Positions 3,291 to 20,424 of a stretch of 33,834 nucleotides of DNA are shown in pieces. How positions within the stretch are numbered: position 1 is the stretch's first letter; each line of letters begins with the position of its first letter. The stretch lies in contig JBFGZE010000025.1 in assembly GCA_041586955.1 (NCBI GenBank), positions 1-33,834 of the forward strand, written 5' to 3'. The position numbers and the translations under genes were made by a program. The notes below the pieces were generated by a model. The model saw only the letters and a program-made list of their open reading frames with translations, did no database searches and had not been told where the DNA came from. The stretch is from Bacteriovoracaceae bacterium (GTDB lineage: Bacteria > Bdellovibrionota > Bacteriovoracia > Bacteriovoracales > Bacteriovoracaceae).

Positions 3291-3926
3291 ATGAATCAAC
3301 AACGTCAAATGAAGGGGCTCTTCCTTATTTCTTTTTTTCCGGCCTTGGCCTATTGGTATTTAGAATCCCAATATCCTATTTCGATTGCTGTTGCTGGTGG
3401 CATGGCCCTTTCTATTATAGAGATTGGCCTTGAAAAACTGATCAATAAGCACGTTCATACGATATCTAAAATTAATTTTTTCTTGATCGCCTTTTTGGGG
3501 GGACTCTCTTTGATTGGGGAAGATGGAGTATGGTTTAAATTGCAGCCATTCTTTACAGGTATGGGGATTGGCTCTTTTCTCTTTTATCGCATATATCGTG
3601 GTAGAGGTTTATTAAGAGAAATGGTGATGGGCAATGAGAAAATGCAGCATATTCCTTCTGAAATTTTAGAGATGATTGAACGGCATATGGCCTTATTCTT
3701 TTTAATCACCGGGTTCATGATGGGAGGGGTTGCCTTATGGACAAGCACTGAAACTTGGTTGTTTTTCAAAACCATTGGCAATAATATTCTTTTTGTTCTC
3801 TTTTTTATAGTGGAGTTTTTTTTAATCAGACAAAAGTCAAAAGAGTTGGCAGAGAATTTAGTGAAACAACAGGTTCTTTCCACGCTCTCTCCTCAGTTTC
3901 AACCTCGTGATTCGCGTTTACCCTAA
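3291..3926 (+). CDS. YciB/IspZ (intracellular septation protein A) family membrane protein
   Basis: About 5 TM helices; motifs FLGGLSL...WFKLQP and ETWLFFKT. Confidence 0.8.
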   Translation: MNQQRQMKGLFLISFFPALAYWYLESQYPISIAVAGGMALSIIEIGLEKLINKHVHTISKINFFLIAFLGGLSLIGEDGVWFKLQPFFTGMGIGSFLFYRIYRGRGLLREMVMGNEKMQHIPSEILEMIERHMALFFLITGFMMGGVALWTSTETWLFFKTIGNNILFVLFFIVEFFLIRQKSKELAENLVKQQVLSTLSPQFQPRDSRLP

Positions 3927-3941
3927 AAGGACATTCCTTTT

Positions 3942-5846
3942 TTACTCTTTCATAATTTTATTAAGATTAATATAGATTGATCTACCCTTAACTTTTACCC
4001 CTTCGAGGAGAGAATCAAATAAGTCCACGATGATAAGAATCAGTTTTGTACTGGGGATAAGTGGTAAAAAAGTTACTTTCTTGATGTCTAGGCGGATAAT
4101 ATTGGCCTTTTTATTATAAGAAATATCACCAAAGGCCTCGAGTTTTTTATCGATAAAGAGCGTCTTACCCTTCATCTTTAAGCTAAATGTTCCATTTTTT
4201 GTCTTATCTTTTGCAGGTTTTGCCTCAAGATTTATATTTCGAGAAAAATTAAAACCTGCCAATTGTAAGATGGACCCTGATTCTTTAACGTTTCCGAGTT
4301 CAATTTTAAGTTTAGAGATACATTTTTCAAGAATGACTTTATAGTCAAAATCTTCCATATCCTTGAAGCTTACGTTAGGGAAACAATTAAACTTAAAATT
4401 CTTAAGCGTTGTTTTATTTCCTTTATCATTTTTAAAAATGGCCTTTGGCACAGATAGATAAAAACTATTCTTATTAAGCTTTATTTTGTCAATTAGCACT
4501 TCTGTTTTATTTTTCTTCTCAATCATTTTAATATCTTTCACTGTGATATTGGCCCTTTCAAAGCATCCTTCCCTAAGGTCGGAAATTTGAACCGATTGGT
4601 CCTTACCTGTTCTTTTACAGTTCATATTAAGATTATTGATGAGAATATTCAGACCGTCTTTAGCATCAGATACCTGGTGAATCTTCTTTGCTTGTAGGTT
4701 AAAACTATTTTCTGAAAAGACAATATCATCAAGTTCAATTTTAGTTGTTCTTAAAAGTTCTTTATCACGGAAGTTAATTGTTGATATATTGGCAATTCCA
4801 TTATTGAGGCAATTGTCGGCAATATTATCTAATTTAATGGATTCAAACTTTTTCAGCTCATTACAGGTAAGCCCTAAACGATCAATTGCGACGTTATATG
4901 ATTCGTCATTATATAGAAGATTATCAAAATGAAGGTGAGACTTTTTATTAAGAGCGTAGAGCGATGCTTTTGTGAAGCTGATATCGGAATCTAAAGTCTC
5001 TTCAATCCCTGAGTCTATATTTTGTTGGGTTGATTGCACGTTTATCTGAATAGGTGCATTATGTTCTTGGCCAGATAGAATGGCATTATGAAGACATTTC
5101 TCTTGGAGCACTAGTTTAGATATCGTTTTAGAATGGTAAAGACTTGAACATCGCAATTTTAATTGTCTTGATTCAATATTTAACTTTTCACTTTTAAATC
5201 CCAATTCAGATGCTAGAAAATAAGAGTCACCCCGATCTTTTAGGGATTCAATTCCAATATCCTTTCCTGATATCGTTGAATCTTTTGTTCCTTCATCAGT
5301 ATCTCGAGAGTAATTTATCGTAAAGTGTGAGCCGTCGCGCCCCGTGAAATTTGACTTTTGAAGACAGTTTTGAATGAAGTTATCTGAATCGCCACCGCAA
5401 AAAAACTGATAGTTTTTAAATATTAGGTTGGTATCATCTTTATAATAATGGATGTATTTACCAATAAGAGATGCCTCAAATTTTTCCCATGAAATAATTG
5501 TATCTTTGATAATAAGGCCATCGGCCCATTCCTTAGAAATGGGGAATTGATTGGCATAATAAGTTTCAAATAAATCGTTTTTTAAGGATAACTCTTCTTG
5601 ATTGATAAAGTATTCAGCGTTAAAGATTTTATCTGAATTGCTTTTAAAGTGCCCATTGTCCAGTACAACTTCAATAAAGGGGCCAGTTAAATGACCTCTA
5701 AACCCACCGTTTTCTTTTGTCGCGACGAACTTTTCGATTTCAAGGTGAACCTTTTTGACACTGGATGGGTCTTTGATACTTTGATGGAGTCCTACCTCTG
5801 CAAAACTCGGAGCTGAAAGGAGAATGGATAATATTTGTAATTTCAA
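3942..5846 (-). CDS. Secreted beta-rich repeat protein with five Cys pairs (unknown function)
   Basis: Track ORF of 652 aa from 5900. A TTG at 5846 follows AGAGGG and gives a signal peptide (MKLQILSILLSAPSFA|E). All 10 Cys fall in periodic pairs. Confidence 0.75.
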   Translation of the reverse strand: MKLQILSILLSAPSFAEVGLHQSIKDPSSVKKVHLEIEKFVATKENGGFRGHLTGPFIEVVLDNGHFKSNSDKIFNAEYFINQEELSLKNDLFETYYANQFPISKEWADGLIIKDTIISWEKFEASLIGKYIHYYKDDTNLIFKNYQFFCGGDSDNFIQNCLQKSNFTGRDGSHFTINYSRDTDEGTKDSTISGKDIGIESLKDRGDSYFLASELGFKSEKLNIESRQLKLRCSSLYHSKTISKLVLQEKCLHNAILSGQEHNAPIQINVQSTQQNIDSGIEETLDSDISFTKASLYALNKKSHLHFDNLLYNDESYNVAIDRLGLTCNELKKFESIKLDNIADNCLNNGIANISTINFRDKELLRTTKIELDDIVFSENSFNLQAKKIHQVSDAKDGLNILINNLNMNCKRTGKDQSVQISDLREGCFERANITVKDIKMIEKKNKTEVLIDKIKLNKNSFYLSVPKAIFKNDKGNKTTLKNFKFNCFPNVSFKDMEDFDYKVILEKCISKLKIELGNVKESGSILQLAGFNFSRNINLEAKPAKDKTKNGTFSLKMKGKTLFIDKKLEAFGDISYNKKANIIRLDIKKVTFLPLIPSTKLILIIVDLFDSLLEGVKVKGRSIYINLNKIMKE

Positions 5847-6072
5847 TTCGTACCCTCTTAAGCTGAGTATAAAATTAATACTGTAAACTGAAATTAACAA
5901 AAATGCGCAGCGCGTAACAGGTGCTCACTATTAATTACAGAGTGATTGGAGTAAAAGGCCAAACAACTTTCTGTTAAAACGCCCTTTTTAACACTTTTCA
6001 GACAAGGTGGTAAAATAAAATTTATTTAACGCGAGGTGTTTTTCTGTTTAAGGGATGAATTCTCTATCGATA

Positions 6073-6909
6073 TTATTCCATCGATTGGCGTTTACCTTGA
6101 GCATAAGAGCCAATAATTTTTAATTGATTGACCTGCGACTGTAATTCATTAAAACAATCCTGAACATTCTTTTCCTGAATACCGCCGAGGAAATCGGTAT
6201 AAAAAATATAGGCGAAAGGGTTTTCGGGAATGGGCCGACTTTGAAGCTTCGTTAAGTTGAGGTTATGGTCAGCGAATATTTTGAGGCAATTGAGAAGAGC
6301 TCCAGGGTGGTGCTTACAAACAAAAGCGATAGATGTTTTTTCTTGCTTGAGCTGTCGCTCAGGACTTCCCTTTTGAAAGAGAAAAAAACGGGTGTAGTTA
6401 TTATTAAAGTCTTGAATATTACGCTTTAAAACATTCAGTCCATAAATTTCAGCGCATAATTCAGAGGCCACAGCACCAATCTTTGGGTTGGGGTCCTTAG
6501 TAATCGCCAGGCAAGAGCCAGCAGTATCATACTCTGAGTTGATCTTTATATTATGGGTGCGGAAAAAGTTTTTACATTGGGCCAAGGCTATAGGGTGTGA
6601 GTAAACACGCTTGATTTGCTCTAAAGACGAGCCGGGGATTCCCAAAAGACAATGGCGTATCGATAAATAAAATTCCTGTAAAACAAAAACATTTTCTTTG
6701 AAAAAAAGGTCAATATTAACATTAACGTTACCGACAATACTATTTTCTATGGGGAGGAGCCCGAGCTCACATCGATTACTGAGAACCGCTTCAAAAACTT
6801 CTTCACTAAGCGGGAAACCCTTGCTCTGGTAATCGTTGGAAGGAAAATGTTCATGAATTGTCATTTCACTATAGGCACCTGGTTTCCCCTGAAAGGCAAT
6901 GGTTTTCAT
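6073..6909 (-). CDS. pheA: Prephenate (or arogenate) dehydratase with C-terminal ACT domain
   Basis: Motifs FQGKPGAYSE, PIENSIVG, SHPIALAQC, NYTRF, PGAL and NLTKLQSRP. Confidence 0.95.
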   Translation of the reverse strand: MKTIAFQGKPGAYSEMTIHEHFPSNDYQSKGFPLSEEVFEAVLSNRCELGLLPIENSIVGNVNVNIDLFFKENVFVLQEFYLSIRHCLLGIPGSSLEQIKRVYSHPIALAQCKNFFRTHNIKINSEYDTAGSCLAITKDPNPKIGAVASELCAEIYGLNVLKRNIQDFNNNYTRFFLFQKGSPERQLKQEKTSIAFVCKHHPGALLNCLKIFADHNLNLTKLQSRPIPENPFAYIFYTDFLGGIQEKNVQDCFNELQSQVNQLKIIGSYAQGKRQSME

Positions 6910-7631
6910 GGTAAGCTTTCCTGCACATTTTTAAGTGATTCGGTAAACTTCTGGCGAACTTGTTCAGCATAGGGATTATATTGATTCATATCCACAAATA
7001 ATTGCCAGGAGTCATTTTCCACCGTTTCCAGAATTTTCATGAGACGGCGATGGCCAAGGGTATCGATCTCTTTGCTCTCTGCTTGAAAATCAATAAGGCC
7101 GCGACCAATATAATGAGTCAGGACTAAAGTCTCGGCGATTTGTTTATCATGGTCTTCGGCGCTGCTATTAATGACATAAAGTCCCATGGACTCCAAGTAA
7201 TTTTTAATATTGATCACTTTCTTCTCGGCAATCCGCACTGGGCAAAGGACCATTTTTTTGCCATAGAGAGTGGTTTTGGCACTATCGGGACCAAACATGG
7301 GATGGGTACCGAGAATTTCGACATGAGAAGGTAAGATTTCTTTCATCCATTGGATGGGATAGGTTTTAACGGAACAGACATCGATAAAAAGTGTTTCTTT
7401 TATCAGAAGAGGAGCGATGGCATTCAAGCTGGAGACCATTTCACTAATGGGTACCGCGGCAATAATCATATGGGAGGAGGCGAGTTCGGCCAAGGTTGCA
7501 GGAGTTCCTCCGGCATCTAAAATCGCTTGGTCGTTCTTTTTAATATCATAAATAAGGCATTTTGCATCTTGAGATAAAAAGCGGGTGATTAATTGGCCCA
7601 TACGGCCGAAACCAATAATTCCTATTTGCAT
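6906..7631 (-). CDS. tyrA: TyrA-family prephenate/arogenate dehydrogenase
   Basis: Rossmann motif GIIGFGRMG, DVCSVK, HPMFGP and HD...TH. The stop overlaps the pheA start (ATGA). Confidence 0.93.
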   Translation of the reverse strand: MQIGIIGFGRMGQLITRFLSQDAKCLIYDIKKNDQAILDAGGTPATLAELASSHMIIAAVPISEMVSSLNAIAPLLIKETLFIDVCSVKTYPIQWMKEILPSHVEILGTHPMFGPDSAKTTLYGKKMVLCPVRIAEKKVINIKNYLESMGLYVINSSAEDHDKQIAETLVLTHYIGRGLIDFQAESKEIDTLGHRRLMKILETVENDSWQLFVDMNQYNPYAEQVRQKFTESLKNVQESLP

Positions 7632-8782
7632 AAGACCTTCTTGATTTGGGCAAAGCCCTTTTTGATATTTTCTTCATTGGTAGCAAAGCAAATACGCAGA
7701 TGGCCTGGTTGGCCGAAGGCGCTACCTGGCAAGAGAGCGACTTGCGCCTCTTTGAGTATTTTTAAACTGAGGTCCGAGTCGGTAGGTGTCTCTTCATTTA
7801 AATATTGACTGACATCAGGAAAGAGATAAAAGGCCCCCTCTGGGTACACACAGGGGAAAATTTCGTGGCATAATTGATAGCTGAGGTCCCGTCGCTTTTC
7901 AAAAGTTTGTACCATTTCTTGGTAAAAATTGGATTGTAGCTCTAGAGAGGCAATACCGCCATATTGAGCAAAGGTACAATTATTACCTGTCATATGACCT
8001 TGTAATTTATTAATGTCTTTGATGATTGAAGCGTGAGAAATGACATAACCAAGACGGAAACCAGTGAGGCAATGAGATTTTGAAAAGCTGCGCACGATAA
8101 AGGTTCGCTCTAACGCTTTGGCACCCAATTGCGCCGGAGAGAAATGTTTTTTGTCTCCATAGACCAAGGTATCGTAGGCTTCATCACTAATAAGCCAAAG
8201 GTCGTGCTTTTCCGCCAATTGATAAATAGCTTTTATTTCCTCTTCACTGTAGACGATACCAGTTGGGTTATTGGGAGTATTGATCAAGATCGCTTTGGTT
8301 TGCTTTGTGATTTTATTTTCTAAGTCGCTAAGGTCGATTCGCAAGTTTTGATGATCGACAAATTTTGGCGTACCTGCTGCTAATTTAATGGACTCGGGAA
8401 AGGTTACCCAATAGGGGGTGGGAACGAGAACTTCGTCACCGGGATTGAGAATGGCCTGGAAAATATTATAGAGAACTTGTTTGGAGCCATTGCTAATGCA
8501 AATTTGATCACAATTAATCTCGCGATTCCATTCGGCGCTTAAATCCTTGGCCAATAATTCACGTAAGCGCAGCACTCCGGCAACTAAACTATAACGGGTT
8601 TCACCTGCCATGAGTGCTTGAGAGGTATGCTCTAAGACTTTTTGTGGCGGAAGAAAGTCGGGTTCTCCCACATTAAAAGGGATAATAGTTTGGCCCTGAT
8701 TTTTGAGGTCCTGGATAACTCTGGCAAGAGCAATGCTCTTGGACTCTTCAATGGCCAAGACGCGTTTTGAAATTGTTGGCAT
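7622..8782 (-). CDS. Class I (1-beta type) PLP aminotransferase, aspartate/aromatic or prephenate aminotransferase
   Basis: Motifs GEPDF, NGSKQ, NTPNNPTG, SDEAYD, SFSKSHCLTGFRLG (PLP Lys), PEGAFY and LRICFA. Confidence 0.93.
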   Translation of the reverse strand: MPTISKRVLAIEESKSIALARVIQDLKNQGQTIIPFNVGEPDFLPPQKVLEHTSQALMAGETRYSLVAGVLRLRELLAKDLSAEWNREINCDQICISNGSKQVLYNIFQAILNPGDEVLVPTPYWVTFPESIKLAAGTPKFVDHQNLRIDLSDLENKITKQTKAILINTPNNPTGIVYSEEEIKAIYQLAEKHDLWLISDEAYDTLVYGDKKHFSPAQLGAKALERTFIVRSFSKSHCLTGFRLGYVISHASIIKDINKLQGHMTGNNCTFAQYGGIASLELQSNFYQEMVQTFEKRRDLSYQLCHEIFPCVYPEGAFYLFPDVSQYLNEETPTDSDLSLKILKEAQVALLPGSAFGQPGHLRICFATNEENIKKGFAQIKKVLCK

Positions 8783-13548: not shown

Positions 13549-15351
13549 ATGACTAATAAGACGACACAGATTAAACAAGGTTTACTCAGAACCCACCATT
13601 GCGGCGAGTTAAACGCCGAACACGCCGGACAAACGGTAACTCTGTGCGGTTGGGTAAATAAATACCGCGATTTGGGAAGCCTCCACTTTGTTGATGTTCG
13701 CGATAAGTATGGAGTGACTCAATTAGGCTTTGAAGAATTTAAAGGAGATCTCTCGATCCTCAAGTCCTGTGCTCTTGAGTCTGTTATTTTGGCCAAGGGA
13801 AAGGTTCAATTAAGACCAGCTGAAGCTCAAAATAATAAAATGGCCACCGGAGCTGTTGAAGTTTCAGTGGAGGAGCTGGAAGTCCTGTCGCAAAATAATA
13901 TTGACGAAATTCCTTTCCTACCATTTGGCCAAATTGAGGCATCTGAAGATTTACGATTGAAGTACCGGTATTTAGATTTACGCAGCACCCGTCTCCAGGA
14001 TATTTTGGCCTTGCGCTCGAAGGTTACAACTCGTGTTCGCCAAATTCTTAGTGATGAAAAGTTTGTCGAGGTAGAAACGCCTATCCTTTATAAATCAACG
14101 CCTGAAGGCGCGCGTGACTATCTCGTTCCCAGTCGCGTCCACCCGGGAGAAGCCTATGCTCTTCCTCAATCCCCGCAAACACTCAAGCAATTGTTAATGA
14201 TTGGCGGAACTGATCGTTATTTCCAGATTTGCCGTTGTTTCCGTGATGAAGATTTACGCGCAGATAGACAACCTGAATTTTCTCAAATTGATATTGAATG
14301 CTCATTTGTCTCTCAAGATTATATTAAGTCTTTAGTGGAAAAAATATTGGGGGACCTTTTTGACGAGGGAGACAATTTTTCTATGCCTGTCATGACTTTT
14401 CAACAAGCGATGGAAATGTATGGCAGTGATAAGCCTGACTTACGTTTTGGCCTTAAGCATATGAATGTCACCTCCTTATTTAAAGACAGTGAGTTTAAAG
14501 TCCTTTCAGGCCCGGCCAATAATAACGGACTTATTAAAGCGATTTTTATTACCAATGAAATGGGTAGCTTTTCGCGCAAAGATGTTGATGGATTGACTGA
14601 CGTGGTGAAACCCCACGGAGGTAAAGGTGTGGCCTTTTTTAAACAAGCTGCAGACTCTGTTAGCGGCGGAATTTCAAAATTTATTACCCCAGAGATTCTC
14701 GCCCAATTAGAGGAGTTGAAAGAAGATAAAGGTGATGGAACGTGGCTTTTTGTCGCGGATACTGATAGTGAAGTGGTCCACGCTAGTGCCGATGCTTTAC
14801 GTCGCTATTTAGGCCAGCATTTAAACCTTCTAAAAGACGGTTACCATTGGTTATGGGTTACTGATTTTCCTCTATTTGAATACGCAAAAGAAGAGGAGCG
14901 TTTTGTCGCACGCCACCATCCTTTTACTTCACCAAAATCAGATCATCTTCAGGCCTTTCTTGAAGGGGGAGATGAGAATTGGAGTAATTGCCTCGCGGAA
15001 GCTTATGATGTCGTTTGTAATGGCTATGAGATTGGCGGCGGCTCTATTAGAATTCACCAAAATGAAGTACAAGCACAAATGTTTAAGGCATTAGGAATGA
15101 GTGAAGAGGAGTGCCAGCATCAATTTGGTTTCTTTTTGGAAGCTCTGAAATATGGTGTACCACCGCATGGTGGCCTGGCCTTTGGCCTTGATCGAATCAT
15201 TATGCTTTTAGCGAAAACTGATTCTATCCGCGATGTGATCGCTTTTCCTAAAACAACAAAAGCTTCTGATTTAATGGCACAGGCGCCTTCAAGCCCAGGC
15301 GAAGCGCAATTAAGAGAGTTGCATTTTAAGTGGGATCTTCATCAGAAGTAA
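13549..15351 (+). CDS. aspS: Aspartate--tRNA ligase
   Basis: RTHHCGEL, RLKYRYLDLR, PEGARDYLVPSR, LPQSPQ, FRDEDLRADRQPEF and PPHGGLAFGLDR. The ATG at 13549 has the RBS GGAGA (track start 13534). RDLGS matches the discriminating-type signature. Confidence 0.98.
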   Translation: MTNKTTQIKQGLLRTHHCGELNAEHAGQTVTLCGWVNKYRDLGSLHFVDVRDKYGVTQLGFEEFKGDLSILKSCALESVILAKGKVQLRPAEAQNNKMATGAVEVSVEELEVLSQNNIDEIPFLPFGQIEASEDLRLKYRYLDLRSTRLQDILALRSKVTTRVRQILSDEKFVEVETPILYKSTPEGARDYLVPSRVHPGEAYALPQSPQTLKQLLMIGGTDRYFQICRCFRDEDLRADRQPEFSQIDIECSFVSQDYIKSLVEKILGDLFDEGDNFSMPVMTFQQAMEMYGSDKPDLRFGLKHMNVTSLFKDSEFKVLSGPANNNGLIKAIFITNEMGSFSRKDVDGLTDVVKPHGGKGVAFFKQAADSVSGGISKFITPEILAQLEELKEDKGDGTWLFVADTDSEVVHASADALRRYLGQHLNLLKDGYHWLWVTDFPLFEYAKEEERFVARHHPFTSPKSDHLQAFLEGGDENWSNCLAEAYDVVCNGYEIGGGSIRIHQNEVQAQMFKALGMSEEECQHQFGFFLEALKYGVPPHGGLAFGLDRIIMLLAKTDSIRDVIAFPKTTKASDLMAQAPSSPGEAQLRELHFKWDLHQK

Positions 15352-16205
15352 TTCTTGAGAACTCTTTTGGTAATTTGAGGTAATTCTCCTGGGTTGATGG
15401 CCCTATATTGGCCATGCCCAGGAAAGATCCAAGTGACATTTTGATAGACCTTGAGCTTTTCAATTGAATCTCTTTGTTTTTCCCAATCATACCAACAATA
15501 ATCTTTGGTGGCATAAAAGTCGCCCATTGTGCGACTATAATATAAATGGTCGCCGGTAAAAAGGTACTTATCTTGTAAAAGAAAACAGAGATGACCTTTG
15601 GTATGGCCTGGAGTGGGGATGATCTTTAGATCCTTCGTGATCTCTACCTCTTCTTCTCCTTTTATCACTATATCTGGGTTTTTAACCACATCGCTATCGT
15701 CAGCATGAATGAGAACCTGGGCCCCTAAGGCCTTTCGCCATTGTTCATAATCACTTACATCATCGCGATGGGTGAGCAGTATATAATCCACTTTTCCTAG
15801 CGTTTGGATTTTTTCCGCTAATGGGCGATAAAAACGGGGAGAATCAATCATGACAAGGTGAGTGCCAAGACGCGCGAGATAACTTTCGGCGGCAAAGGAT
15901 TTCTTGGAATGATAACCTAGAAGATAGACATCATCGTTGATGGTGAGAGGAAAAGAATCATGGGCCTTGGTGAGAGATCTTTTTTCCTTTTGACCTATTG
16001 ACCCCACCGGGCAGCAGATAAGGGCCCGGCCAGCATCTAATTCCTCTTCTTCATTGCGCGGTTGGGTTTTGACAAAGCTATGCTCTGGGCCTTCGCCAAA
16101 TATAGAGGGGGCCAATTTACGGCAGACATCACAATCGATACAGGTTAGATCAACAAATAGGTTACCTGGAGTATTTTCTGGAACTATTTTTTTAGGATCG
16201 GCCAT
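15342..16205 (-). CDS. Ferredoxin-fused metallo-beta-lactamase-fold hydrolase
   Basis: N-terminal CIDCDVC...CPVGSI Fe-S motif; MBL motifs THRDDVSD, PGHTKGH, FTGDH and PGHG. Confidence 0.88.
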   Translation of the reverse strand: MADPKKIVPENTPGNLFVDLTCIDCDVCRKLAPSIFGEGPEHSFVKTQPRNEEEELDAGRALICCPVGSIGQKEKRSLTKAHDSFPLTINDDVYLLGYHSKKSFAAESYLARLGTHLVMIDSPRFYRPLAEKIQTLGKVDYILLTHRDDVSDYEQWRKALGAQVLIHADDSDVVKNPDIVIKGEEEVEITKDLKIIPTPGHTKGHLCFLLQDKYLFTGDHLYYSRTMGDFYATKDYCWYDWEKQRDSIEKLKVYQNVTWIFPGHGQYRAINPGELPQITKRVLKNYF

Positions 16206-16332: not shown

Positions 16333-16821
16333 ATGTTAAAATTATTGACAATGGTATTGGCAATGCATTCACTTTCGGCCTTCGCTGCAGATTCTAGTGA
16401 TGGTTGTGGTCTCGCTAATCTTGTTTACGACAAAAAATCGATGGTTGGGATTAGTACCCGCTCGACAATTAGAGGATCTTATAGTGGGATTCTTGATTGG
16501 ACGGGAACGACTTCAGGCAAATTTGGCTGTGCTAAGCATTCTATTGTAAAGGCCGAGAAGAGAGGCTTGCACTTTCTGAATGCCAATATTGATGCCGTAT
16601 TAACAGACGCCTCAACTGGCCGTGGCGAATATCTTCAGGGTCTCGCTCGTAGCCTCGGTTGCCAGGACGGAGTCTTTTCTCATTTTGCTTTAGAAGTTCA
16701 AGAGAATTTTGGGGATATCTTTTTTCCTGCCTCTGACGATCAGGCCCGAGCGATTAGAAAAATTCAAGATATCATTAAAAGCAATAAAACTTTAACCAAT
16801 AATTGCTTAAGTGCTGTTTAA
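16333..16821 (+). CDS. DUF3015 family secreted protein, copy 1
   Basis: Signal peptide (AFA|A); DGCGL...GTTSGKFGC, D...GRGEYL..LA..LGC and a C-terminal Cys. Confidence 0.88.
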   Translation: MLKLLTMVLAMHSLSAFAADSSDGCGLANLVYDKKSMVGISTRSTIRGSYSGILDWTGTTSGKFGCAKHSIVKAEKRGLHFLNANIDAVLTDASTGRGEYLQGLARSLGCQDGVFSHFALEVQENFGDIFFPASDDQARAIRKIQDIIKSNKTLTNNCLSAV

Positions 16822-16836
16822 TTGAGGAGAAAATTG

Positions 16837-17319
16837 ATGAAGCTATTATTATTTATTATTTTAACGACTCTCATTTCTCCCATTGCTATGGCCGGGAAAG
16901 GAGATAAAAGTCTTGGTGGTTGTGGACTGGGTTGGGCCGTGGCCCCTCGTAATTCAATGGTCTCAAGTACAACAAGAGGAACAACGAATTCCTCGACATT
17001 GCCTTTTGGCACAACTTCTGGAACCAGTGGCTGTGCTCAACATAGTATCGTTTTTAATCATAAGCTTAAGCAGCATATGGCGACGGTCAGTTTTGACGAA
17101 TTAATGACAGAAATGTCCAAGGGGCGTGGAGAAAACTTGATCGCTTTTTCTCGGGCCGTCGGATGTTCAGATAATTTAATAGAGCAATTTTCATCGGTTG
17201 CTAAGAGTGAATTTTCTTCTCGATTAGGAAGAAGTGAAACGCCCATCCAGCTGGTTAAGCAAGTTGAAGTAATGATTCAAAATAATTCATCACTTGCTCA
17301 GGGTTGTGTTGTTTTATAA
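16837..17319 (+). CDS. DUF3015 family secreted protein, copy 2
   Basis: RBS AGGAG then ATG at 16837 (track start 16822). Signal peptide (AMA|G); GGCGLG...FGTTSGTSGC, EMSKGRGENL.A....GC and a C-terminal Cys. Confidence 0.9.
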   Translation: MKLLLFIILTTLISPIAMAGKGDKSLGGCGLGWAVAPRNSMVSSTTRGTTNSSTLPFGTTSGTSGCAQHSIVFNHKLKQHMATVSFDELMTEMSKGRGENLIAFSRAVGCSDNLIEQFSSVAKSEFSSRLGRSETPIQLVKQVEVMIQNNSSLAQGCVVL

Positions 17320-17362
17320 ATTAGTTTTCAATGCCAAGAAAGTCTCATAAGATTTTTATTCT

Positions 17363-19258
17363 ATGAGACTTTTTTTATTTCTGCTATTTTCATTTCCCAC
17401 TTTTTCATCAGAGCTTGATGAAACTCTCTTTAAAAAAATATCAACATCACGACAATGGCATTCTCTTATGCATTACGAACCTCATTGGGGTGGGTTTGAA
17501 AGCCGTGCTGATGCGGTCAGTTTTTTCTTTGCAAAAGAGGGGAAGTATAAACCGCTGCAAGAGCTTAAGGCATCTTATCAAGCTTTTAAAAAGAGGGCTC
17601 TCGTTAAAGATTTAAATAATGATCCTCGTTGTCGTTTTCCCGCTCGCTTTGAGTATATTAAAAAGAATCTTGACCCAGGGTTAGAAAATGCCATTTGTCC
17701 CGATTTTGAGCAATGGATAAGCTCACTAGACCCTCAAACACTGTCCTTAGTCTATACCAGTAGCTTTCCCAATAACCCTGCTTCAACCTTTGGCCATACT
17801 TTTATTAAAATCGTGTCTAAAAAGTCCGCTGCTATCCAGAACGCAAAAGGTAATAATAAAAAATTAGATCTTCTCGATTATTACGTGGGGTTTTCCGCTC
17901 AAATTGCTGATCCCAATCCGATTGAATATATCATTAAAGGCCTGACCGGCGGTTTTCCTGGAAAATTTGAAATGGGGCCTTATTACCTTAAGGTCAATGA
18001 ATATAATAATATGGAAAGCCGGGATCTTTGGGAATTTCAATTGAATTTCACAGTGGAGCAAACCAGACGGATGCTTGCTCATATTTGGGAACTCTCGCGC
18101 AATACTCATTTTGACTATTTTTTTATGGATGAAAATTGTTCATCGCTTTTACTCAAAATATTTGAAGTCGGGCGCCCGGACTGGCAATTACTTCATCCTT
18201 GGACCATGACTGTTCCACCTCCTGAAACAATTAAGCCGCTAGCAGAAATTAATGGGGCGATTAAGGCCATTCATTTTAGGCCTTCGCTTTTTAAACGCTT
18301 CCGTCATCAATATAATTTTCTCACATCATTACAAAAGAAAAGATACCACCAGGTGATTCAAAAGAAAGTAGATGTTAAGGACATTAAAGATCCCTATCTT
18401 ATTGAGGTGGCGATGGGGAATTTTATGGTGGCCAAGAAAAAAGACCCTATAAAGTTTAAAAGAGAAGACCAACGTTTTTATACTCAGCTTTTGATTCAGC
18501 GCTCAAGGTTACCTATTATTGACAATACAGAGTTCGACCGCGTGACCTCTGACTCTCGGCCCGACTTATCTCATGGGGATAATCTTGTGGCGATAGGAAT
18601 GGGGGCAGTTAAAGATTCTCTCTTTCAAGAAATTTGGTTACGACCATTTCTTCATGACTTCCTATCACATGATATTGGTCAACCCCAATATTCTCATATT
18701 GAAGGTTTTTCAGCGAAGCTTCGTTATTATTTTGAAAAGAATAAATTAAAAAATAAATTACAATTAGATGAATTAACAGTGCTATCAATAGGTTCACTTT
18801 TTCCTTCGACTGAATTTTCCAGAAAATTTTCTTACGATGCTGGTTTAACATTATTTACACCTGATGATCTTAATTGCTTGGACTGTCGCTCATGGCGATT
18901 ACAGGGGCGCGGAGGGCATGCCTTTGAGCTTATTGCAGACTCTCTTTTACTTTATGCTCTTGGGGGGGCCCAAGTTGAATATAATGATCTTTTTAATCAT
19001 AACTTTCGCTATGGGCCCAATGCTCGTCTAGGCGTGCACTTTAAAGGAAGACGCTACCGAAATCATTTCTTTATTGATTCTTTTTGGGATCTCGGGCAGC
19101 ATGAGCGCTTGAAGTTTCATCAAGTCACACATTTTGACCAATCATTGAGCTTAGGTCGCAATAAAGAATTACGCCTTGAGATGAGTTTCTATCAAAATCA
19201 TCACGATTTTGATTTCAATAAGTATGAGCATAAGCTTTCACTACTTTTTCATTTTTAG
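17363..19258 (+). CDS. DUF4105 (Lnb N-terminal-like) Cys-His domain protein with a predicted C-terminal outer-membrane beta-barrel
   Basis: Signal peptide; W..LMHY, CRFPARF, NNPASTFGHTF (His145), ESRDLWE and YFFMDENCS (Cys259). The C-terminal strands are amphipathic and end in ...KLSLLFHF. Confidence 0.88.
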   Translation: MRLFLFLLFSFPTFSSELDETLFKKISTSRQWHSLMHYEPHWGGFESRADAVSFFFAKEGKYKPLQELKASYQAFKKRALVKDLNNDPRCRFPARFEYIKKNLDPGLENAICPDFEQWISSLDPQTLSLVYTSSFPNNPASTFGHTFIKIVSKKSAAIQNAKGNNKKLDLLDYYVGFSAQIADPNPIEYIIKGLTGGFPGKFEMGPYYLKVNEYNNMESRDLWEFQLNFTVEQTRRMLAHIWELSRNTHFDYFFMDENCSSLLLKIFEVGRPDWQLLHPWTMTVPPPETIKPLAEINGAIKAIHFRPSLFKRFRHQYNFLTSLQKKRYHQVIQKKVDVKDIKDPYLIEVAMGNFMVAKKKDPIKFKREDQRFYTQLLIQRSRLPIIDNTEFDRVTSDSRPDLSHGDNLVAIGMGAVKDSLFQEIWLRPFLHDFLSHDIGQPQYSHIEGFSAKLRYYFEKNKLKNKLQLDELTVLSIGSLFPSTEFSRKFSYDAGLTLFTPDDLNCLDCRSWRLQGRGGHAFELIADSLLLYALGGAQVEYNDLFNHNFRYGPNARLGVHFKGRRYRNHFFIDSFWDLGQHERLKFHQVTHFDQSLSLGRNKELRLEMSFYQNHHDFDFNKYEHKLSLLFHF

Positions 19259-19386: not shown

Positions 19387-19821
19387 ATGGAATATTTTAA
19401 AGATAAAGACAGATATTTTATACGAATTGATAAAGACGAGGATCTTTTTGGCAGCTTAGAAGAGTTTGCTCGACAAGAGAATCTCAAGGCCGGGCATCTA
19501 AGTGGTATTGGCGCTTTAAAAGATACGGAATTGGGTTTTTATCATTTGAAGAGCAAAACCTATGACCGCAAGATGGTGCCAGAAGAAGCGGAGCTTTTAA
19601 GCTTAGACGGTAATTTATCGCTTTTTGAGGGGAAACCATTTTTTCATATCCATACCGTTTTAGGAGGATCTGATTTCAAATGTTATGGAGGCCATCTCTT
19701 CTCTGCAAAAGTCGCAGTCACTTGCGAAGTCAACTTTCGCCCTTTAGATATTGATGTGGAAAGGCGAATGAATGAGAAAATCGGACTTAATCTTCTCCAT
19801 TTTTGCGGCATTAATCATTAA
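19387..19821 (+). CDS. PPC/DUF296 domain protein
   Basis: Motifs SGIGAL, ELLSLDGN, FHIH, GGHL and TCEV. Confidence 0.92.
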   Translation: MEYFKDKDRYFIRIDKDEDLFGSLEEFARQENLKAGHLSGIGALKDTELGFYHLKSKTYDRKMVPEEAELLSLDGNLSLFEGKPFFHIHTVLGGSDFKCYGGHLFSAKVAVTCEVNFRPLDIDVERRMNEKIGLNLLHFCGINH

Positions 19822-19827
19822 CAACTC

Positions 19828-20424
19828 TTAGGCCGCGAAAAAGTCCCTTTGGGTCTCTTTCGCCTCTGCTTCCATTTTTAATTGGCCATGATAACTGGCC
19901 AGGAAACGATCGTAGTTTTCTTGTGGGATACTATAGGTTGCGCTGAGCATATCCGGAAGGCCGGATTTATCACGTCTAAAAAATGAGATAAAAAAGGGCA
20001 AGCAAAAAAGAGTATAATTTATATAATAAGCGGTGGTTCTAAGCAGGGCATCTTTCATTGTTAATGGTTTCAAGACTTGTCGTCTGTTCACGATTCGCAA
20101 CCCCATGAGTAGTTTTCCAAAAGTTTGGCCACTTGAGAGATATAAACTTAAAAAGAAATAACCAAACAAGTTAATAGAATTAAGAACAAATCTAAGGTGA
20201 TGATGACTGGTATGATTGAGAATATTCCATTGAGTCTTCCCCGCTAGGCCGAATAAGTGTAATTGCACATACTCTTCAAAGCTATTCACCATTAATTGGC
20301 CAATAAGAGAAATAACAAATAGGTCGATGATAAAGGCATAAACTCTTTTGCGTAGAACCTTTTTCGACTGAAAGGGACGCGTGGGTTTAAAAAAGAGAAT
20401 ATGGCCAGTTTTAGTCTCGGTCAT
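19828..20424 (-). CDS. RDD family membrane protein
   Basis: KRVYAFIID, GQTFGKLLMGLRIV, LLR and LPDMLSAT. Confidence 0.9.
   Translation of the reverse strand: MTETKTGHILFFKPTRPFQSKKVLRKRVYAFIIDLFVISLIGQLMVNSFEEYVQLHLFGLAGKTQWNILNHTSHHHLRFVLNSINLFGYFFLSLYLSSGQTFGKLLMGLRIVNRRQVLKPLTMKDALLRTTAYYINYTLFCLPFFISFFRRDKSGLPDMLSATYSIPQENYDRFLASYHGQLKMEAEAKETQRDFFAA

Follow-up and report, generated by a model that had tools for sequence, protein, structure and literature searches.

What does a pair of small secreted proteins do beside an enzyme that is built into an outer-membrane barrel? The question is raised by a locus of a Bacteriovoracaceae bacterium (phylum Bdellovibrionota), on contig JBFGZE010000025.1 of assembly GCA_041586955.1. 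The whole stretch analysed, positions 1 to 33,834 of that contig (33,834 nucleotides), is referred to as the window. Positions 16333-19258 of the window carry three co-oriented genes on the plus strand, separated by intergenic gaps of 15 and 43 nt. The first two encode small proteins of the DUF3015 family. The third encodes a relative of Lnb, the Bacteroides enzyme that N-acylates lipoproteins and requires Cys148 (PMC11573676, accessible text). An initial annotation, made from the letters alone, had described this tight packing, and the same coordinates and gaps were recovered here, confirming the set of DUF3015 genes and Lnb-like barrel gene. The module is real, widespread and unstudied. In both its architecture and its gene context, it represents a new variant of the Lnb-type acyl-enzyme, for which a function is proposed below. 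Its parts are as follows.

16333..16821, plus strand: DUF3015 paralogue 1, 162 aa (PF11220, E 6.7e-23), with a GGAGG Shine-Dalgarno sequence in front
16837..17319, plus strand: DUF3015 paralogue 2, 160 aa (E 1.3e-25), with a GAGGAG Shine-Dalgarno sequence in front
17336..17378, plus strand: hairpin followed by a U run; the stem-loop spans 17336-17375 and the ATG of the enzyme (17363-17365) lies in its 3' arm
17363..19258, plus strand: whole gene of the Lnb-like, predicted outer-membrane protein, 631 aa (AlphaFold2 model with mean pLDDT 91.9 and pTM 0.89)
17435..17665, plus strand: DUF7843 N-terminal domain, aa 25-101 (Pfam)
17705..18220, plus strand: Lnb_N (formerly DUF4105), catalytic domain of permuted NlpC/P60 type, aa 115-286 (Pfam)
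18221..18568, plus strand: linker, mainly helical, aa 287-402 (AlphaFold2 model)
18569..19258, plus strand: DUF7840, predicted 12-stranded barrel with a terminal Phe, aa 403-631 (Pfam and model)

The start of paralogue 2 was taken as the ATG at 16837, which gives the 160-aa form of the public protein collection; the open reading frame program offers a TTG at 16822. None of the three proteins matched an NCBIfam model at E up to 0.01.

The three genes keep company well beyond this genome. Related genomes of the phylum were sampled (41, this one counted), with linkage defined as a distance within 3 kb. DUF3015 occurs in 24 of them and DUF7840 in 23, and the two sets differ by a single genome, in which DUF3015 lies at a contig end. 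DUF7840 is linked to DUF3015 in 41 of 44 matches, and 47 of 53 DUF3015 matches lie near DUF7840. The DUF3015 gene stands upstream on the same strand in 36 of the 41 linked cases, downstream on the same strand in 4 and on the opposite strand in 1. Additionally, 41 public DUF3015 loci were gathered with an 8-sequence alignment. The enzyme gene adjoins on the same strand in 37 of these, and in three of the remaining four the locus is cut short by the end of the contig. By their record titles, the loci come from Bdellovibrionota, Nitrospirota, Elusimicrobiota, SAR324, Campylobacterota, several genera of Gammaproteobacteria, and Mariprofundus (Zetaproteobacteria), while the source names of enzyme carriers add Spirochaetota and Myxococcota. 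A further sample, of 201 genomes, covered the class to which the Pleionea locus L032 belongs, which we take to be Gammaproteobacteria. Here DUF7840 is present in 32 genomes and DUF3015 in 25, all 25 within those 32, and linkage holds for 28 of 37 DUF7840 matches and 32 of 35 DUF3015 matches. The association of the two genes is far beyond chance. The initial annotation had expected DUF3015 and barrel-type DUF4105 proteins to be genomic neighbours, and each of these samples bears this out.

The genome itself offers a second view of the module, as it holds four DUF3015 and two Lnb_N matches. The second module is located on contig C61 (L007 5853-8251, minus strand), with a 149-aa DUF3015 gene at 7802-8251 and a 631-aa enzyme gene at 5853-7748. 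The gap between them is 53 nt and contains a hairpin of -20.9 kcal/mol plus T8. It has one small gene, and its lineage differs from that of the window's module. For both proteins, the nearest relatives of the window's module (contig C25) are found at L009 and those of the C61 module at L046, and L009 and L046 belong to one other genome. This paired closeness indicates that the module was duplicated and has been inherited as a unit. Distances among enzymes and among the adjacent small proteins also correlate (Pearson 0.76, a value reached by 0 of 2000 permutations). Such co-divergence reflects shared species history in part, and the paired inheritance is the more telling of the two. Conserved synteny and paired inheritance thus support the view, already taken in the initial annotation, that the three genes form one dedicated module.

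The large protein combines a catalytic part with a membrane part. The Lnb_N domain (PF13387) is matched at E 3.3e-49, with 167.2 bits against a cut-off of 22.2, and the Pfam match to DUF7840 covers aa 398-620 at E 3.7e-34. A search found 699 homologues of the enzyme. Among the 120 matches listed, all have the order DUF7843, Lnb_N, DUF7840, and the most specific name given is 'DUF4105 domain-containing protein'. The named sources among those listed are Bacteriovoracaceae, Halobacteriovorax, Leptospira, Spirochaetia, Myxococcota and Polyangia. The putative catalytic residues, which had been read as His145 in an FGH motif and Cys259 in an ENC motif, are intact in the 631-aa protein and invariant in 70 of 70 homologues. 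Asn258, Ser260, the pair Arg220-Asp221, Cys90 and Cys112 are also invariant across this 70-sequence alignment. Cys90 lies within DUF7843 and Cys112 just past that domain, which suggests a disulfide between the two. In the AlphaFold2 model, His145 (codon 17795-17797) starts strand 145-152 and Cys259 (codon 18137-18139) starts helix 259-270. This predicted layout is papain-like in permuted order, with His before Cys. The linker is modelled as strand 300-306 followed by helices 309-319, 322-332, 344-360, 367-382 and 389-392. A sequence search of the Protein Data Bank (PDB) with the enzyme gave chance matches to Max alone (E about 0.1). In the Manganitrophaceae locus L031 (5721-7743), two overlapping frames of 470 and 258 aa take the place of a single enzyme gene, possibly through a frameshift or an assembly error.

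The family to which this domain belongs points toward lipids. According to the accessible text of PMC12994826, DUF4105 falls within a lipid-targeting branch of the permuted NlpC/P60 enzymes, with Tox-Act1 and TseH as sister clades, and permuted NlpC/P60 enzymes of known activity act on acyl esters and not on peptides. Tox-Act1, a type VI secretion effector, is a phospholipase that cleaves acyl chains from phosphatidylglycerol (PG) and phosphatidylethanolamine (PE), and the sister clades consist of toxins whose genes lie in conflict-system contexts (PMC12994826). An earlier survey placed DUF4105 among papain-like families of unknown role (PMC10318531, accessible text).

The membrane part was assessed mainly on the AlphaFold2 model, which superseded a weakly informative scan for strands by hydrophobic alternation. 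The model has 12 strands across residues 408-630. No transmembrane helix follows the leader of the enzyme (best 19-residue hydropathy 1.28). The chain ends in LSLLFHF, and the last alignment column is aromatic in all 70 homologues (F 59, Y 10, W 1), with F, Y or W being the true last residue in 59 of the 70. A Foldseek search with the enzyme model returned 127 PDB chains at E up to 0.001, headed by the 12-stranded barrels FapF, KdgM and NanC, with FapF as the best match (E 9.7e-7). Structural alignment of residues 403-631 gave Tsx at Z 14.4 (198 residues), the EstA barrel at 14.2 and NanC at 14.2. The same barrel region gave KdgM (quoted at 13.5-13.6), NalP (12.6), FapF (12.5), LpxR (11.9) and OMPLA (10.7). 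For aa 398-631, no Pfam family besides DUF7840 was matched at E up to 10, Autotransporter included. When the barrel part was used in a feature search, families of outer-membrane barrels came up at 0.82-0.85, which is below the level that counts. Taken together, the model supports DUF7840 as a 12-stranded outer-membrane barrel of the type handled by BAM. The claim that an Lnb-like Cys-His domain is fused to a C-terminal barrel with a terminal Phe, in place of the helices of Lnb, therefore holds up on the domains, the model and the lack of a transmembrane helix.

On which side of the membrane would the catalytic domain lie? When the strand number of a barrel is even, its N- and C-terminal ends both lie in the periplasm. 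Alignments to the autotransporters EstA, NalP, EspP and Hbp begin at model residue 403-408, past their pore helices, and nothing in these alignments points to a pore-spanning helix or to surface display. Because of the even-stranded topology and the start of these alignments past the pore helices, a periplasmic catalytic domain is favoured. The invariant residues of the barrel, His404, His431/Asp432, Ser478 and Pro481, are found ahead of strand 1 and in the unusually long connections that follow strands 2 and 4. On the even-stranded topology, these positions are likely to be at the periplasmic rim, the expected docking place of the catalytic domain. A Cys505-x-x-Cys508 motif (window 18875-18886) is located in the connection between strands 5 and 6, an external loop on the assumed topology.

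The two small proteins match DUF3015 with 81.6 bits (paralogue 1) and 90.4 bits (paralogue 2) against a cut-off of 25. Paralogue 1 is divergent: its identity is 34% with paralogue 2 and does not exceed 37% with any of the other copies collected. Leaders and cleavage sites were read directly off the sequence, without a signal-peptide predictor. In paralogue 1 the leader ends in AFA and continues as ADSSDGCGL..., with Cys at 25, 66, 110 and 158. In paralogue 2 it ends in AMA and continues as GKGDKSLGGCGLGW...FGTTSGTSGC, with Cys at 29, 66, 110 and 157. The first Cys sits 6 and 9 residues past these sites, respectively, matching the 6-9 residues first given. The four Cys that had been noted in both proteins turn out to be a family trait, as they are invariant in 104 of 104 aligned DUF3015 members.

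The region around the first Cys does not resemble that of a classical lipoprotein. The family consensus here is A-A-D-S-S-x-G-C-G-L-G-W-x-V. A lipobox L-[AS]-[GA]-C directly past the hydrophobic core is not the pattern of the family: among 103 DUF3015 sequences, position -3 to the first Cys is Ser in 71 and Leu in 5. The spacer from the hydrophobic core to this Cys is polar, with a median of 10 residues, and holds at least 1 charge in 95 of 103. Lacking a lipobox and having a polar, charged spacer, DUF3015 proteins are not classical lipoproteins. The segment between the first and second Cys is rich in Gly, Ser, Thr and Asn. It is the most conserved part of the family, with a mean top-residue frequency of 0.58 against 0.40 in the helical domain. 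The model of paralogue 2 (mean pLDDT 80.9) is confident for the helical domain 69-157, at 97-98, and poor for the N-terminal segment, at 50-76. Such a low-confidence yet conserved segment is as expected if it were to become ordered upon binding. The model contains a Cys110-Cys157 bridge, which suggests a disulfide there and, by elimination, a pairing of Cys29 with Cys66.

The searches for relatives of DUF3015 remained within the family. With E up to 0.001, a profile search collected 2691 cluster representatives; at 1e-10 the number was 1495. The 150 matches listed are all 107-230 aa long. No fused or longer form was found among proteins of 281-2000 aa, which is weak evidence. Two long frames with a DUF3015 match (836 and 890 aa) were rejected as chance open frames in high-GC DNA, the match lying at their ends. 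Repeats or fibre-like features were not seen in DUF3015. Foldseek with the DUF3015 model against the PDB gave nothing below E 3.2, and a wider structure search reached Z 5.0 at best, a noise-level value for helical proteins. Sol i 2, odorant-binding proteins, Tai4 and Rap1a were considered as relatives and set aside, since their scores (Z 3.2-4.4) are at noise level and not usable. A PDB sequence search gave no match, and a feature search returned the family itself alone.

Two DUF3015 genes are found in 10 of 33 complete modules, the window's counted, with one of the ten borrowing from a neighbouring module on the same contig. The second copy is therefore optional. Proximal and distal copies form separate lineages in several clades, and in three clade pairs proximal copies group with proximal and distal with distal. 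These data are compatible with the earlier suggestion that the paralogues are distinct subunits or cargoes.

The junction between the small genes and the enzyme gene carries a further conserved feature. The hairpin at 17336-17375 has a predicted stability of -16.3 kcal/mol (z -3.55, with 0 of 200 shuffles equally stable) and runs into U's. No Shine-Dalgarno sequence precedes the enzyme ATG, unlike the GGAGG and GAGGAG of the small genes. Hairpins followed by a T run were counted within 150 nt past the last DUF3015 stop, with windows inside the enzyme gene as controls. A cut-off of -8 kcal/mol was too lax, as 38 of 106 controls pass it, and stricter values of -13 and -15 were applied. At -13 kcal/mol or stronger, the feature is present in 29 of 37 modules against 8 of 106 controls; at -15 or stronger, in 23 of 37 against 1 of 106. 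The hairpin is read as a putative terminator or attenuator that would keep the expression of the enzyme low. From the strong ribosome-binding sites and the terminator-like hairpin, we propose that the small proteins are made in excess. Four sequencing runs bear the locus, all of DNA and from one marine-metagenome study, with no RNA run listed.

Some modules have a further gene, and others carry a different small partner. Among the 30 modules with at least 900 nt of downstream sequence, 14 are directly followed by a gene for a lipoprotein alpha/beta hydrolase (Hydrolase_4, with a lipobox, about 290 aa). Examples are L013 (7903-8808), L016 (7214-8041), L032 (7325-8248) and L039 (7313-8182). The genome of the window has an unlinked homologue on contig C62 (L050 1471-2319), with 50% identity. 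Five DUF7840 matches without DUF3015 were inspected as variant modules (L051-L055). At L052 (5460-5843), L053 (4197-4616) and L055 (3103-3519), homologous small lipoproteins of 128-140 aa adjoin the DUF7840 gene. They have a lipobox of the form ..SGC and a conserved NILSGGxFGS..KMW motif, and they match no Pfam family. No small partner was seen by the DUF7840 gene of L051, and the sequence of L054 ended too near the gene to tell. The presence of a small lipoprotein instead of DUF3015 points to the N-proximal Cys region of the small partner as the common theme. At L055, the DUF7840 gene (3896-4717) encodes a stand-alone barrel of 274 aa without DUF7843 or Lnb_N, and the small lipoprotein gene lies in front of it. 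Apparently, the pairing of barrel and partner can exist without the enzyme domain.

Other genes beside the module in the window are not counted as parts of it, since they are not found beside the module in other loci. Divergent from it, on the minus strand at 15342-16205, lies a gene for a 287-aa fusion of a Fer4_13 single-cluster ferredoxin with a hydrolase of metallo-beta-lactamase fold. Downstream of the enzyme gene by 128 nt lies the gene of a PCC-domain protein (144 aa, 19387-19821, plus strand), which is convergent with that of an RDD-family membrane protein (19828-20424, minus strand).

What, then, might the module do? By analogy with Lnb and its lipid-targeting relatives, we tentatively propose that the Lnb-type enzyme acylates the abundant DUF3015 proteins from the outer membrane, probably facing the periplasm. 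Produced in excess, the DUF3015 proteins would reach the periplasm by way of Sec. The enzyme would be made at a low level and inserted into the outer membrane through its C-terminal barrel of 12 strands, with DUF7843 and Lnb_N most probably hanging at the periplasmic rim. Cys259, activated by His145, would take a fatty acyl chain from an outer-membrane glycerophospholipid as a thioester and then hand it to DUF3015 as the dedicated acceptor. We would place the acceptor site in the best-conserved stretch of the family, the N-terminal segment G-C-G-L-G-W ... F-G-T-T-S-G-T-S-G-C. An abundant soluble protein would in this way become a lipid-anchored outer-membrane protein. Where co-encoded, in about half of the modules, the alpha/beta-hydrolase lipoprotein could remove the lysophospholipid left over. 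The periplasmic orientation, the phospholipid donor and the acceptor role of DUF3015 are points that we infer, and DUF3015 as the substrate would be the most economical reading. In its most specific form, the proposal would have the acyl chain placed on the N-terminal loop of a DUF3015 protein cleaved by signal peptidase I, and hence an outer-membrane lipidation independent of Lgt, Lsp and Lnt; this form is rather unlikely.

Several points weigh against the acylation of DUF3015. The residues before its first Cys do not form a lipobox, with Ser at -3 in 71 of 103. The four Cys probably form two disulfides, so that the first may pair with the second and not be free for acylation. The third catalytic residue of the enzyme is unsettled, the candidate position Asp172 being Asp in 51 of 70 homologues. 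The orientation is probably periplasmic, on the strength of topology rules and of the lack of overlap with autotransporter pore helices; binding of DUF3015 by the enzyme and acyl transfer from it are steps that we likewise infer. The linkage also has exceptions. In the class sample, 9 of 37 DUF7840 matches are without DUF3015 within 3 kb. Among the 41 public loci, the single clear exception is the Nitrospirota locus L027 (4938-6046), whose tandem DUF3015 pair is flanked by 5 kb on each side that hold no enzyme gene. The window's own genome holds an orphan, divergent DUF3015 on contig C33 (L008 6312-6791, minus strand; 159 aa) with no Lnb_N neighbour, 18% identity to paralogue 2 and no G-C-G-L-G motif. 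A 199-aa secreted Ser/Thr-rich protein is encoded divergently from this orphan, at 7322-7921.

A possible, if somewhat unlikely, alternative is that the enzyme remodels lipids. Its activity would be that of a phospholipase or transacylase, directed at the glycerophospholipids or lipid A of the outer membrane or at the lipoproteins resident there. DUF3015 would be its abundant periplasmic regulator or inhibitor, or a carrier of the fatty acids or lysolipids released. OMPLA, PagP and LpxR are the models for such roles, and the predicted barrel is similar in fold to OMPLA (Z 10.7) and LpxR (Z 11.9). A small protein set for excess over its enzyme is usual for inhibitor-enzyme pairs, the lipoprotein alpha/beta hydrolase is often co-encoded, and DUF3015 has a compact helical domain. 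The nearest characterised relatives act on lipids (PMC12994826, PMC11573676; accessible texts), and the sister clades are toxins in conflict-system contexts (PMC12994826). However, conservation in DUF3015 peaks in the poorly ordered N-terminal segment, which fits a substrate better than a lipid pocket, and its likeness to helical lipid binders or to type VI amidase immunity proteins is at noise level (Z 3.2-4.4). The unrelated small lipoprotein of the variant modules is also hard to square with a specific lipid carrier.

It is improbable that the two proteins are simply a structural pair, in which DUF3015 or the variant small lipoprotein plugs or caps the barrel or aids its assembly, in the style of LptE and LptD, while the target of the enzyme lies elsewhere. 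A one-to-one subunit needs no conserved terminator giving an excess. This reading draws on the barrel of L055, which has a small lipoprotein in front even though it has no catalytic domain, but that barrel is a single locus. It also draws on the co-divergence of enzyme and small protein (Pearson 0.76), which is in part shared species history, and on the clustering of invariant residues at one barrel rim.

Quite improbable is a combination of enzyme and transporter, in which a peptidase or transpeptidase would trim DUF3015 at G-C-G and the barrel would export it or allow its polymerisation, in the style of FapF and FapD or of an usher. FapF, an amyloid secretion channel, is the best Foldseek match of the barrel, but in structural alignment (Z 12.5) it is not distinct from Tsx (14.4) or NanC (14.2). 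The conserved DUF3015 segment is rich in Gly, Ser, Thr and Asn, and a hairpin past the gene of an abundant subunit recalls, from general knowledge, the pilin operons; yet repeats are absent from DUF3015, and the search for longer or fused forms came up empty, which is weak evidence. The catalytic domain does belong to the papain-like superfamily (PMC10318531, accessible text), but its permuted NlpC/P60 relatives of known activity act on acyl esters rather than peptides (PMC12994826). The initial annotation had favoured export or polymerisation of DUF3015 by the barrel. We find no support for this, given the narrow 12-stranded barrel, the folded helical domain and the probable disulfides between invariant Cys, which are ill suited to passage through such a pore.

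That the enzyme is a housekeeping Lnb orthologue doing the job of Lnt in this organism is very improbable indeed: it has an Lnb_N domain with an intact His/Cys pair, but the genome encodes Lgt and a canonical Lnt (TIGR00546, 223.4 bits against a cut-off of 132.9), so that the enzyme is not the housekeeping Lnb, and in addition it scores 12.5 bits on the NCBIfam Lnb model NF051878 (cut-off 550), has no transmembrane helices, is predicted at the outer membrane, away from lipoprotein maturation, and occurs in two copies, each with its own small partner.

Acylation of DUF3015 from the outer membrane, tentative as it is, would matter beyond this genome. To our knowledge, protein lipidation in diderm bacteria takes place entirely at the inner membrane, where Lgt and Lsp act first and Lnt or Lnb last. 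If an acyl-enzyme of the Lnb type were fixed in the outer membrane together with an abundant partner of its own, this would mean a second site of lipidation or a new form of outer-membrane lipid editing. If lipidation independent of Lgt, Lsp and Lnt were true, it would define a new class of lipid-anchored envelope proteins that predictors based on the lipobox do not see. The module probably stands for a route of envelope protein or lipid modification that has yet to be described, and it gives DUF3015, DUF7843 and DUF7840 a testable context.

The literature found is sparse. No description of the module of DUF3015 and barrel-type Lnb_N was found. The accessible parts of the DUF4105 literature make no mention of the barrel form or of DUF3015, and the homologue supplement of PMC12994826 may include barrel forms. 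Literature searches found no occurrence of DUF7840, DUF7843 or PF25222, and PF11220 appeared in an unrelated fungal secretome paper only. A search combining Lnb and beta-barrel led to papers on Lol transport. For DUF3015, the single occurrence found is a Leptospira transcriptome table that lists a gene of the family as down-regulated in vivo (PMC13066512, accessible part).

The module can finally be placed beside the systems that it resembles. The Fap system has a 12-stranded barrel (FapF), a papain-like cysteine enzyme (FapD) and small, abundant secreted proteins in one operon. It differs in that the enzyme and barrel of the window form one chain, DUF3015 is folded and helical with invariant Cys rather than a repeat amyloid subunit, and FapF is no closer than unrelated barrels in structural alignment. 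EstA of Pseudomonas aeruginosa shares the plan of an acyl-hydrolase domain, a helical linker and a 12-stranded barrel (Z 14.2 over 198 residues), whereas the window protein has no Pfam Autotransporter match and its catalytic family differs from that of EstA-type autotransporters. OMPLA (PldA), LpxR and PagP are enzymes held by a small outer-membrane barrel of similar fold, and they share the idea that lipids of the outer membrane are used or edited where they lie. Their active site lies within the barrel, while that of the window protein lies in a separate globular Cys-His domain, and there is no match of sequence family. We know of no dedicated small protein partner for OMPLA, LpxR or PagP.

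Closer in catalytic domain are Tox-Act1 and TseH, which form sister clades of DUF4105 and have the catalytic His and Cys in common with the window protein. They are secreted toxins, whereas the window protein is predicted to be anchored in the organism's own outer membrane and belongs to a housekeeping-like module found in many phyla. Lnb shares with it the Lnb_N domain, the conserved His and Cys and their order. The weak alignment to NF051878 places enzyme residues 201-260 on profile positions 88-148. A domain outside the cytoplasm and acyl-thioester chemistry on lipid substrates are further likenesses to be expected. Lnb itself has 398 aa and is predicted to cross the inner membrane with five transmembrane helices (PMC11573676, accessible text). 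The window enzyme, in contrast, has a predicted 12-stranded barrel, no transmembrane helices and an extra DUF7843 domain; it coexists with a canonical Lnt and is paired with a small secreted partner.

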